A stretch of DNA of 64,000 bases from Escherichia coli (GTDB taxonomy: Bacteria > Pseudomonadota > Gammaproteobacteria > Enterobacterales > Enterobacteriaceae), in NCBI RefSeq assembly GCF_003790525.1, contig NZ_CP033635.1; one strand, 5' to 3'. A model generated the notes under the pieces. The model was not told where the DNA came from. It saw nothing but the letters and a program-made list of their open reading frames with translations, and ran no database searches. Shown here piece after piece: positions 17,437 to 56,397 of this stretch (position 1 is the first letter of the stretch; every line of letters begins with the position of its first letter). The position numbers and the translations under genes were made by a program.

Positions 17437-17577
17437 TTCAGTACCTCACGACTCGGACAAAATGCCGTTGCGCGCACAGTACAGCGCAACTTGTTTTGTT
17501 AAAAACATGTAAATGATTTTTTATTGTGCGCTCAGTATAGGAAGGGTGTTTTCGGCTACAATCAAAACATGCCCGAA

Positions 17578-35768: not shown

Positions 35769-36659
35769 TTATTTCGCCTGGTTACGGGCAAACAGGTCGT
35801 CGAGCTTCTCTTCGTACTGGTAGTAGTTGATGCTTTCGTACAGCTCGTTGCGGGTCTGCATGGTGTCGATGACGCTTTTCTGCGTGCCTTCCTGACGCAG
35901 GACGTTGTAGACATGTTCGGCGGCGCGGTTCATGGCACGGAACGCTGAAAGTGGGTACAGCGCCATTGCGACATGGGCGCTGCGTAATTCGTCGGTGGTA
36001 AACAGCGGTGTTGCGCCAAATTCGGTAATGTTGGCGAGGATTGGCACCTGCACCGCATCAGCAAACTGGCGGTACATGGCGAGTTCGGTAATCGCCTCCG
36101 GGAACAACATCTCGGCACCCGCTTCAACATAGGCCTGCGCGCGCTCGATCGCGGCGTCCAGCCCCTCTACCGCCAGCGCATCGGTGCGCGCCATGATCAC
36201 AAAATCAGGATCGGTTTTCGCATCCACCGCCGCGCGGATCCGATCCACCATCTCCTCTTTCGAGACGATCGCTTTGTTCGGACGATGACCGCAGCGTTTC
36301 GCACCAACCTGATCTTCAATATGCAATCCTGCCGCACCGGCTTTAATCATCGATTTCACGGTGCGCGCCACGTTAAAGGCCGAAGAACCAAAACCGATAT
36401 CCGCATCCACCAGCAGCGGCAGCGAACAAACGTCGGTAATACGGCGAATGTCAGTCAGCACATCATCAAGAGTAGAAATACCGAGATCGGGCAGCCCCAG
36501 CGATCCTGCCGCCACGCCACCGCCGGAGAGATAAATCGCCTGATATCCGGCACGCTGCGCCAGCAGCGCATGGTTAGCGTTGATGGTGCCAACAATTTGC
36601 AACGGGGTTTCTTTGCTAAGTGCAGCGCGAAACGCTTTACCTGGAGAGTGTAGAGACAT
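35769..36659 (-). CDS. prpB: 2-methylisocitrate lyase
   Basis: 296 aa; isocitrate lyase/PEP mutase family. Confidence 0.92.
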
Positions 36660-36706
36660 AGCCCATCCTTTGTTATCAACTTGTTATTTGCGTTGATAAA
36701 GACAAA

Positions 36707-36723
36707 GCAATGAGTGTGCCACA
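36707..36723 (-). promoter_or_regulatory. sigma-54 (-24/-12) promoter of prpBCDE
   Basis: minus strand reads TGTGGCACactcaTTGC (GG-N10-GC), about 50 bp upstream of prpB start. Confidence 0.7.
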
Positions 36724-36831
36724 ATTGCCTTAATAAAATTAAACATTTAATTTCAATGAGTTAAAGATAAAGTCATGAAGTAATCCGCAAATATGCGTTT
36801 CAGTTAACGTTTCAGGCAATGTTTCACCGCG

Positions 36832-36855
36832 TTTCATTGCAACAATTATGAAACA
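36832..36855. promoter_or_regulatory. candidate PrpR enhancer palindrome
   Basis: GTTTCAT-tgcaacaatt-ATGAAAC, preceded by additional gtttca repeats at 36795-36830. Confidence 0.45.
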
Positions 36856-36897
36856 AGACTAAACCCAATATTCGGTTTCTTAACTTTGCGGTGCGCT

Positions 36898-38484
36898 ATG
36901 GCACATCCACCACGGCTGAATGACGACAAACCGGTTATCTGGACAGTATCGGTGACGCGCCTGTTCGAGCTGTTTCGCGATATCAGCCTCGAGTTTGATC
37001 ACCTGGCGAATATCACCCCTATTCAGCTTGGCTTTGAAAAAGCGGTGACCTACATCCGCAAGAAACTGGCAAACGAACGCTGCGATGCCATCATCGCTGC
37101 TGGCTCTAACGGCGCGTACCTGAAAAGCCGCCTGTCAGTGCCAGTTATTTTGATTAAACCGAGCGGCTACGATGTATTACAGGCACTGGCAAAAGCCGGA
37201 AAACTCACCTCTTCTATCGGCGTTGTCACTTATCAGGAAACTATTCCGGCACTGGTGGCGTTTCAAAAAACCTTTAATTTGCGCCTCGACCAACGTAGCT
37301 ACATTACCGAAGAAGACGCGCGCGGGCAGATTAACGAGCTGAAAGCTAACGGCACCGAAGCGGTGGTCGGCGCGGGGCTGATTACCGATCTGGCAGAAGA
37401 AGCCGGAATGACCGGAATTTTTATCTATTCCGCCGCCACCGTACGCCAGGCATTCAGCGATGCGCTGGATATGACGCGCATGTCGTTACGCCATAACACT
37501 CACGATGCCACCCGCAACGCCCTGCGTACTCGTTACGTGCTGGGCGATATGCTCGGTCAATCACCACAGATGGAACAGGTACGGCAGACTATTTTGCTGT
37601 ATGCCCGCTCCAGTGCGGCGGTGTTGATTGAGGGGGAAACGGGGACGGGCAAAGAGCTGGCGGCCCAGGCGATTCATCGGGAATATTTTGCCCGCCACGA
37701 TGCGCGACAGGGCAAAAAGTCGCATCCGTTTGTTGCCGTCAACTGCGGGGCGATTGCTGAATCTCTGCTGGAAGCGGAGCTGTTTGGCTATGAGGAAGGA
37801 GCGTTTACCGGCTCGCGACGTGGAGGTCGCGCCGGGCTGTTCGAAATTGCCCACGGCGGTACGCTGTTTCTGGATGAGATTGGCGAAATGCCGCTACCTT
37901 TGCAGACTCGCCTGTTACGGGTGCTGGAAGAAAAAGAGGTCACCCGCGTCGGCGGGCATCAGCCTGTTCCGGTGGATGTGCGAGTCATTAGCGCCACTCA
38001 CTGCAATCTGGAAGAAGATATGCGGCAAGGGGAGTTTCGCCGTGATCTGTTTTATCGGCTGAGTATTTTGCGTCTGCAATTGCCACCACTGCGCGAGCGG
38101 GTGACGGATATTCTGCCGCTGGCGGAAAGCTTTTTGAAAGTGTCTCTGGCGGCGCTCTCCGCCCCGTTTTCTGCCGCATTACGCCAGGGGTTACAGGCAA
38201 GCGAAACCGTGCTGGTGCACTACGACTGGCCGGGCAATATTCGTGAACTGCGCAATATGATGGAGCGACTGGCGCTGTTTTTAAGTGTGGAACCGACGCC
38301 GGATTTAACGCCGCAATTTTTGCAGCTGCTACTGCCGGAACTGGCGCGCGAGTCGGCGAAAACTCCCGCTCCACGCTTACTGACACCACAACAGGCACTG
38401 GAGAAATTTAATGGCGATAAAACAGCAGCGGCGAATTATTTAGGTATCAGCCGGACGACGTTCTGGCGGCGGCTGAAAAGCTGA
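36898..38484 (+). CDS. prpR: sigma-54-dependent transcriptional activator of prp operon
   Basis: ORF 36886-38484 trimmed to [15 protein letters not shown] (528 aa); AAA+ motifs [24 protein letters not shown]-terminal HTH. Confidence 0.9.
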
Positions 38485-56333: not shown

Positions 56334-56397
56334 CCAGTATCCCCACTGTTATTGTTACCATTTAAAATCAAATTCGTAACAATTAAGACACATTTTA

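Follow-up and report, generated by a model that had tools for sequence, protein, structure and literature searches.

The prpBCDE promoter was dissected genetically and biochemically between 1997 and 2005, and it is now in routine use in pPro vectors and in propionate biosensors. The boundaries of the PrpR footprint are assumed here from a secondary citation. In Salmonella, the PrpR enhancer has the published consensus CGTTTCATGAAACG, with 2-methylcitrate as the signal, according to the entry in Table 1 of PMC4987338, which cites Palacios & Escalante-Semerena 2004; the same entry gives PrpR footprinting in Salmonella as the origin of this consensus. Requirements for rpoN and ihf are cited in passages of PMC5566544 and PMC2965739, the former citing ihf as genetically required for the expression of Salmonella prpBCDE. 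A looping model is stated in PMC13213109, and a CRP site was reported to overlap the PrpR operator (Lee et al. 2005, as described in a citing paper). With regard to the promoter itself, in vitro selection with the RpoN holoenzyme (gSELEX) gave a binding peak in the prpR/prpB spacer of K-12 (PMC8743547), and the orthologous Salmonella site was found by sigma-54 ChIP-chip, with a wild-type to delta-rpoN ratio of 45-fold for prpBCDE when the constitutively active bEBP DctD250 was expressed (PMC3844500). The association of a sigma-54 promoter with a PrpR enhancer upstream of prpBCDE is already known and belongs to textbook knowledge.

Here, the prpB-prpR intergenic region was analysed in a 64-kb stretch of E. 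coli DNA (hereafter, the window), which is 100% identical to the chromosome of E. coli SMS-3-5. Positions 36660-36897 correspond exactly to the 238-bp spacer that separates prpB, on the minus strand, from prpR, on the plus strand, the two genes being divergent. The NCBIfam equivalog scores of PrpB, PrpC, PrpD, PrpE and PrpR were all far over the cut-off, and the gene names match the RefSeq annotation of the identical SMS-3-5 sequence. The spacer is very probably the divergent control region of the E. coli propionate (2-methylcitrate cycle) genes, this confidence applying to the whole model of a sigma-54 promoter, a PrpR enhancer and looping assisted by IHF. The sequence elements themselves (Table 1), their non-random clustering, their conservation and the identities of the genes are established directly by the present analysis.

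Table 1. Position of the genes and of the observed or predicted elements of the prpB-prpR region in the window
Feature	Position	Strand	Basis and remarks
prpB, methylisocitrate lyase, gene 1 of prpBCDE	35769..36659	-	NCBIfam NF008455 equivalog, 560 bits; RefSeq annotation, identical sequence; ATG at 36659
prpB Shine-Dalgarno sequence, AAGGAT	36665..36670	-	Read from sequence; GGA invariant in enteric alignment
Direct repeat TTGTTATCAACTTGTTAT resembling an ArcA box; two TGTTA cores at 11-bp distance	36670..36687	+	Matrix match, 15.8 bits
Leader inverted repeat TTATCAAC-N11-GTTGATAA	36673-36680 / 36692-36699		Exact repeat; about -4 to +23 of predicted start
Degenerate third repeat TTGATAA, one turn further	36693-36699	+	Sequence; right arm of the inverted repeat
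Predicted prpB transcription start	36694..36696	-	About 12 nt past the -12 GC; predicted from the fixed geometry of sigma-54 promoters
Sigma-54 promoter TGGCACactcaTTGC (TGGCACACTCATTGC)	36707..36721	-	All 10 core bases match; GG 36720-19, GC 36708-07
IHF-like site TTTCAATGAGTTA, between enhancer and promoter	36751..36763	+	Consensus match, one mismatch to WATCAANNNNTTR; centre about -62
Direct GTTTCA half-sites H5 (36797-802), H4 (36809-814), H3 (36821-826)	36797..36826	+	TGAAAC when read towards prpB
Distal PrpR dyad GTTTCAT-N10-ATGAAAC, half-sites H2 and H1	36831-36837 / 36848-36854		Exact palindrome; near-invariant in enterics
Second ArcA-matrix match TTGTTTCATAATTGTTGC	36839..36856	-	Matrix match, 15.9 bits; overlaps the distal PrpR dyad; ambiguous
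prpR, sigma-54-dependent activator (PrpR_N sensor domain, AAA+ domain, C-terminal HTH)	36898..38484	+	NCBIfam NF011953 equivalog, 1010 bits, full length; ATG at 36898

Besides this spacer, the comparison included those of E. coli K-12 and four other E. coli strains, of E. marmotae, E. albertii, four Citrobacter species and Kluyvera, and, further away, of two Photorhabdus species, three Oxalobacteraceae/Burkholderiaceae and one Xanthomonas. The homologue search yielded E. coli clusters almost exclusively, and no Salmonella occurred among the matches listed in a scan of the genome collection with PrpR. Four Salmonella-type contigs were obtained via a metagenome scan using the published 18-nt prpB promoter of strain LT2 (PMC3844500), a scan that returned 120 matches, mostly due to chance. 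Across the orthologues from Escherichia to Oxalobacteraceae, the HTH motif of PrpR, YLGISRTT(F/L)WR(R/K)L, is kept (with a final I in Herbaspirillum and as QLGVSRTTLWRWL in Xanthomonas), which fits a half-site common to these lineages.

The first-pass annotation had placed a TGGCAC-N5-TTGC element on the minus strand, about 50 bp upstream of prpB. This element was indeed found at 36721..36707, with its 3' end 47 nt upstream of the prpB ATG and its GG and GC dinucleotides exactly 10 bp apart, and it is the single match to this pattern in the window. The pattern by itself is not rare, with 0.25 matches expected per window and at least one in 22 of 100 shuffles; being statistically unremarkable alone, the -24/-12 element draws its weight from its position and its conservation. 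TGGCA(C/T)-N5-TTGC occurs 40-50 nt before prpB in all 15 species (15/15), and in the enteric alignment the core is invariant. The 5-nt spacer inside the promoter drifts even within E. coli, where it reads ACTCA, ACCCA or ACCCC. An invariant core around a free spacer is what a genuine -24/-12 element should show, and the orientation of the site and its distance to prpB point in the same direction. The start predicted near 36695 implies a leader of about 36 nt.

Upstream of this promoter are five copies of GTTTCA/TGAAAC within 58 bp (36797-36854), four of them on the plus strand (starting at 36797, 36809, 36821 and 36831) and the last one inverted (36849-54). The GTTTCAT-N10-ATGAAAC palindrome described in the earlier reading is exact (36831-36854), and the three additional direct copies that it mentioned are those starting at 36797, 36809 and 36821. 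Their distance had been given as 110-190 bp further upstream, which is only approximate: measured from the -24 element, the palindrome is 110-133 bp away and the direct copies 76-105 bp, a distance of 190 bp being already inside prpR. The centres of the half-sites are found about 80-132 bp upstream of the -24 GG, with spacings of 18, 10, 12 and 12 bp that describe one wide dyad followed by three direct repeats. The window contains 43 GTTTCA hexamers in total, which is about the expected number, and outside the prp cluster no two copies occur within 60 bp of each other anywhere in the window. The largest cluster obtained in 1000 dinucleotide-preserving shuffles of the window had three copies, and none of 5000 shuffles of the spacer only reached five.

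Fourteen prpR-prpB spacers out of 15, from Escherichia to Oxalobacteraceae, combine a -24/-12 element with a half-site cluster, and the remaining one, which is the most distant, has the promoter without the cluster; the shuffle expectation for half-site arrays adjoining prpR is 0.1-0.2 per spacer. These sites are thus clustered, non-random, conserved, located at least 70 bp upstream of the promoter, and adjacent to the gene of a cognate activator, PrpR, that possesses both a sigma-54-interaction AAA+ domain and an HTH, as would be expected of a PrpR enhancer. Of 5220 E. coli records, 4653 have an identical 67-bp enhancer, while just 24 have at least 99% identity over the surrounding 441 bp, and 2041 have 90-95%; the enhancer is an island of constraint. 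The Salmonella-type contigs contain CGTTTCATGAAACG as an exact 14-mer where the E. coli repeats align. Taken with the published PrpR consensus, this 14-mer, the gSELEX and ChIP-chip data and the 14 of 15 spacers uphold the initial interpretation of the region as a sigma-54 prpB promoter with a PrpR enhancer.

The alignment distinguishes a stable and a variable part in this enhancer. The distal dyad, including its spacer TGTTGCAAT, is near-invariant in Escherichia, Citrobacter, Kluyvera and Salmonella. The half-sites H4 and H5 are kept in all enterics as TGAAACG and TGA(A/C)ACG 12 bp apart, H5 being TGACAC outside Escherichia. In Salmonella and Citrobacter, a GTTTCA abuts TGAAACG and forms a compact palindrome, so that the full 14-bp CGTTTCATGAAACG is present at the aligned position, with a degenerate GTTTTG there in Kluyvera. 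None of the Escherichia sequences examined has the full palindrome, the element that defines the footprinted site of Salmonella, which speaks against the model; E. coli has the (C/T)GTTTCA half-site five times, and the wide distal dyad; the left half of the compact dyad reads ATTG(C/T)C in Escherichia and AGTGTC in E. albertii. An extra TGAAAC (H3) is located 12 bp further upstream in all Escherichia but E. albertii, where it is TGAAAT. On the basis of this alignment, the left half of the compact dyad has been lost in Escherichia, which has three direct TGAAAC copies instead, a point that may be new. The E. coli enhancer also lies about 25 bp nearer to the promoter than that of Salmonella (centres at -132 to -80 versus -157 to -117). 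In Oxalobacteraceae, the arrays comprise two leftward and up to four rightward half-sites with a spacing of 7-11 bp. Given such varied arrangements across lineages, PrpR seems to read loosely arranged half-site arrays rather than fixed dyads.

A consensus scan of the region detected no sigma-70-like promoter for prpB or prpR. By our own reading of the conserved columns, a weak candidate for a prpR promoter, TTGCAA-17-TAAACC, is located within and after the distal dyad, and the TTGCAA of the invariant dyad spacer could be the -35 element of prpR.

Between the enhancer and the promoter, sites resembling the IHF consensus WATCAANNNNTTR occur with one mismatch only (36737-36763). A pattern of the IHF type, YAA-N4-(T/C)TG-www, is found at the same alignment columns in other enterics, with a loose conservation. 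A scan of the spacer for a CRP site (TGTGA-N6-TCACA) gave at best 6-7 of the 10 core positions, which is the background level, and did not locate the site reported by Lee et al. 2005. The PrpR footprint on the motif, the requirement for rpoN and ihf, the 2-methylcitrate signal and the CRP dependence come from the Salmonella and K-12 literature, and would apply to this strain by analogy. In such a scheme, RNA polymerase with sigma-54 would bind the prpBCDE promoter and would be unable to open it alone. PrpR would occupy the upstream activating sequence made of five (C/T)GTTTCA half-sites (36797-36854) and, upon binding 2-methylcitrate, would turn into an active AAA+ oligomer. The A+T-rich DNA carrying the IHF-like site (36751-36763) would bend and let PrpR meet the polymerase, and ATP hydrolysis would then open the promoter.

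The leader between this promoter and prpB raises a further question. The first-pass annotation had noticed an inverted repeat there, and the two arms, TTATCAAC and GTTGATAA, are exact (36673-80 and 36692-99). In the enteric alignment, the leader columns without any variation belong to a pair of TAACA pentamers, to two T's located between the pentamers and to the GGA of the Shine-Dalgarno sequence. On the opposite strand, the pentamers correspond to TTGTTATcaacTTGTTAT, which contains two TGTTA cores 11 bp apart, the architecture described for ArcA boxes by Park et al. 2013. An ArcA matrix was rebuilt from the 115 boxes of Table S3 in Park et al. 2013; it reproduces the published scores, the training boxes ranging from 9.2 to 21.3 bits (mean 15.4). 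With direct TGTTA repeats at 11 bp centre-to-centre, the leader site scores at the level of validated boxes, and the chance expectation of a 15.8-bit score in the spacer is 0.0096. Only four sites of at least 14 bits were detected in the window, namely the mhpA and betT boxes, which are known and belong to the training set, and two in the prp spacer.

In all the Enterobacterales examined (Escherichia, Citrobacter, Kluyvera, Salmonella and Photorhabdus), the leader site is found at -28/-29 from the prpB ATG, with 12-19 bits, its TGTTA cores being conserved in the orthologous regions of taxa that contain ArcA. In Salmonella, it reaches 17.8-18.9 bits despite differences at four spacer bases and the loss of the inverted repeat. 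In Photorhabdus, three repeats at 11-bp steps are present at the same -29/-40 position. No match to the ArcA matrix was detected in the beta-proteobacterial prpB leaders examined. This distribution suggests that the feature under selection in the leader is the direct repeat rather than the inverted one. The TGTTA repeats can be read as a predicted operator of the ArcA-P type that would extend over the start site and the first transcribed bases, a reading whose probability we place just below even.

The second ArcA-matrix match of the spacer has to be considered with more reserve. A PrpR half-site array of Oxalobacteraceae also matches the ArcA matrix (13.6 bits), and, because the matrix recognizes PrpR arrays in this family, the 36839-36856 match may be a cross-match with PrpR sites. 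Published data are divided. Park et al. 2013 list a site scoring 15 bits or more on the ArcA matrix upstream of prpR, whose expression rises 2.9-fold in an arcA mutant, but report no ArcA ChIP peak at prp, which counts against a role of ArcA. In the available portions of Federowicz 2014, the sole prp entry is prpR in the regulator/effector list of the supplements, with none in the main text.

Two other functions can be envisaged for the leader element, an ArcA operator being the best-supported of the three readings. It might be an IHF site, since 36674-36686 is a perfect match to the core consensus WATCAANNNNTTR in E. coli and since prpBCDE expression in Salmonella depends on IHF on genetic grounds, according to the passage of PMC5566544 mentioned above. 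However, the site is downstream of the promoter, where bending cannot aid the contact between enhancer and promoter; its Salmonella orthologue has two mismatches to the IHF core while the ArcA score rises; and, across species, conservation falls on the TGTTA cores and not on the IHF core. We regard an IHF site as highly improbable. The repeat might also act at the RNA level, as a 5'-terminal stem-loop of the prpB mRNA that would stabilise the message or modulate its translation. Transcription of the entire repeat would yield an 8-bp stem of about -6.6 kcal/mol, and Escherichia, Citrobacter and Kluyvera share its 6-bp core, ATCAAC/GTTGAT. Yet a start 12 nt past the -12 GC leaves just CAAC of the left arm in the RNA, and the fold is no better than those of shuffled sequences, with z-scores of -1.28 when the full repeat is folded and +0.62 when folding begins at the predicted start. 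Compensatory pairs are absent (0), Salmonella breaks 6 of the 8 pairs, Photorhabdus has no inverted repeat, and no Rfam match was found for the leader. We regard such a stem-loop as highly improbable, and the inverted repeat, rather than working as a hairpin, is probably a by-product of two or three TGTTA direct repeats placed 11-12 bp from each other on the opposite strand. A structured 5' leader RNA was rejected on the folding z-scores, the lack of covariation and the lack of an Rfam match.

A rival explanation also exists for the GTTTCA/TGAAAC repeats, which might be mainly operators of another regulator (Cra/FruR, ArcA or an OmpR-like protein), or serve only in prpR autoregulation, instead of forming an enhancer for prpBCDE. 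TGAAAC resembles the half-site of the published Cra motif gcTGAAtCGaTTCAgc (TGAAtCGaTTCA), and the distal dyad has 15.9 bits on the ArcA matrix. The motif is nonetheless equal to the footprint-derived PrpR consensus in the table of PMC4987338, and it co-occurs with prpR and a sigma-54 promoter both in enterics and in beta-proteobacteria (Oxalobacteraceae). As for Cra, the order of its half-sites, TGAAtC then GaTTCA, is opposite to that seen in the compact dyad of PrpR, the fit of the right halves is poor, and the main text of the Cra ChIP-exo paper makes no mention of prp. Cra/FruR was rejected as the binder of TGAAAC for its poor fit to TGAAtCGaTTCA. Autoregulation is suggested by the location of the sites over the likely prpR promoter region and by the annotation of K-12 PrpR as a "dual regulator", but it is not mutually exclusive with an enhancer role. 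This rival explanation of the repeats is extremely improbable.

Returning to the proposed ArcA operator, its effect on the operon can be sketched as follows. When the quinone pool is reduced, ArcA-P bound to the leader operator would shut prpBCDE off, acting as a repressor roadblock on an enhancer-dependent promoter. In the broader proposal, ArcA-P would gate prpBCDE through the two or three TGTTA repeats (36670-36699), possibly with a second box at the distal dyad and prpR promoter, and, as a separate event, Escherichia would have rewired its proximal PrpR dyad into three direct repeats; we put this forward tentatively, as falling somewhat short of probable. In anaerobic Salmonella, propionate alone induces prpR, while prpB and prpC also need nitrate, a need that would be explained if ArcA gated the operon.

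The ArcA-type leader repeat and the rearrangement of the proximal site in Escherichia are modest additions to a well-described system, and may be new. If the ArcA reading is true, it would provide a testable mechanism linking propionate catabolism to the availability of electron acceptors in enterics, with a bearing on the fitness of Salmonella and E. coli in the inflamed gut, and cloned PprpB sensors used in the low-oxygen intestine would carry a hidden oxygen or redox input. The lineage-specific rearrangement of PrpR half-sites represents a small data point on the flexibility of enhancer-binding-protein sites.

One of the closest described systems is the prpR-prpBCDE region of Salmonella enterica (Horswill 1997; Palacios & Escalante-Semerena 2000, 2004). 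Both loci have divergent genes, a -24/-12 promoter 47-49 nt before the prpB ATG, a distal dyad with an identical spacer core TGTTGCAAT, the TGAAACG and TGA(A/C)ACG half-sites 12 bp apart, and the TGTTA-N6-TGTTA leader repeat at -29. They differ in the compact palindrome CGTTTCATGAAACG, which of the two only Salmonella possesses, Escherichia having ATTGCC at the left half and a gained TGAAAC 12 bp upstream. They also differ in the leader inverted repeat, which is present in Escherichia, Citrobacter and Kluyvera, and not in Salmonella. The Salmonella system is also about threefold stronger. The PprpB of E. coli K-12, as used in pPro vectors and propionate biosensors (Lee & Keasling 2005; PMC9452892), has identical half-sites (all five), ArcA-like boxes (both), -24/-12 core and leader. 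The differences between SMS-3-5 and K-12, namely a promoter spacer of ACTCA versus ACCCC and several substitutions in the A+T-rich bend region, are at unconstrained positions.

With the ArcA-P operators of Park et al. 2013, which are composed of two to four direct repeats, the leader site shares the 11-bp spacing of TGTTA, an A/T-rich spacer and a weaker third repeat one turn away. Its 15.8 bits compare with a mean of 15.4 for validated boxes, and it overlaps the predicted start of a carbon-oxidation operon. Unlike the described ArcA targets, which are sigma-70 promoters, prp would be a sigma-54 target, and no ChIP occupancy has been reported at prp. The region can finally be compared with promoters of the NtrC/glnAp2 type, with which it shares activator sites located about 100 bp or more upstream and would share looping assisted by IHF or an intrinsic bend, as well as the formation of the open complex driven by an AAA+ activator. 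PrpR sites are nevertheless unlike the two fixed dyads of NtrC: they are arrays of 6-bp half-sites in mixed orientation, with 0, 3, 6 or 12 bp between dyad halves depending on the lineage and direct repeats at 10-12 bp. The signal also differs, being a bound metabolite for PrpR, whereas promoters of the NtrC/glnAp2 type respond to phosphorylation.

Across E. coli, the 67-bp enhancer upstream of prpB (36792-36858), which carries the five GTTTCA/TGAAAC half-sites, is a sharp island of constraint within an unusually polymorphic prpR-prpB spacer. Of 5220 E. coli records, 4653 carry it without a single change. The 441-bp surroundings (36560-37000), by contrast, reach at least 99% identity in only 24 records and fall at 90-95% in 2041.

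Part of the invariant spacer of the distal PrpR dyad (TGTTGCAAT) may be accounted for by a second match to the ArcA matrix rebuilt from published boxes, for which the mhpA and betT boxes, both recovered in the window, served as positive controls. This second match is ambiguous, however, because beta-proteobacterial PrpR arrays also match the ArcA matrix. The same dyad spacer contains TTGCAA, a possible -35 element of prpR, and the near-perfect palindrome AAACCCAATATTCGGTTT may correspond to the prpR -10 region or leader. The palindrome is kept in Escherichia and Kluyvera and in part in Citrobacter, but not in Salmonella. As regards the prpR start codon, a mechanical ORF list begins the gene at an in-frame TTG (36886), which precedes the annotated ATG (36898) by 12 nt; the family model and RefSeq favour the ATG. 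On the prpB side, the -12 element of the sigma-54 promoter is overlapped by one copy of a 17-nt direct repeat (TAAAGACAAAGCAATGA / TAAAGATAAAGTCATGA), probably a chance occurrence.

Sequence features of the prpR-prpB spacer and ArcA boxes used as controls
Feature	Coordinates	Strand	Description
Second ArcA-matrix match TTGTTTCATAATTGTTGC	36839-36856	-	overlapping the distal PrpR dyad, with a score of 15.9 bits
mhpA ArcA box, published	17496-17513	+	19.5 bits, rebuilt ArcA matrix
betT ArcA box, published	56376-56393	-	14.2 bits, rebuilt ArcA matrix
17-nt direct repeat TAAAGACAAAGCAATGA / TAAAGATAAAGTCATGA	36697-36713 and 36762-36778		82% identity, 65 bp apart
Near-perfect palindrome AAACCCAATATTCGGTTT	36861-36878		between distal dyad and prpR ATG

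Some E. coli genomes harbor two copies of the prpR-prpB spacer, and nine copies in the E. coli genome collection were found on plasmid-annotated records, such as NZ_AP023209.1 (68.5 kb). In strain SCPM-O-B-9504 (NZ_CP144930.1), the region is split into two matches that lie on opposite strands with about 1 kb between them, and one of them carries the annotation "PrpR N-terminal domain-containing protein"; this arrangement suggests an insertion or rearrangement disrupting the control region or prpR.

Outside this setting, PrpR orthologues with 59-61% identity occur in Massilia (L007 and L009) and Janthinobacterium (L008 and L010), with no prpB found within 2.5 kb upstream of the PrpR gene. In Massilia, a pattern search within 360 bp found no canonical -24/-12 element, and the gene divergent from the PrpR gene encodes a small membrane protein. 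GTTTCA/TGAAAC dyads are still retained in Massilia.
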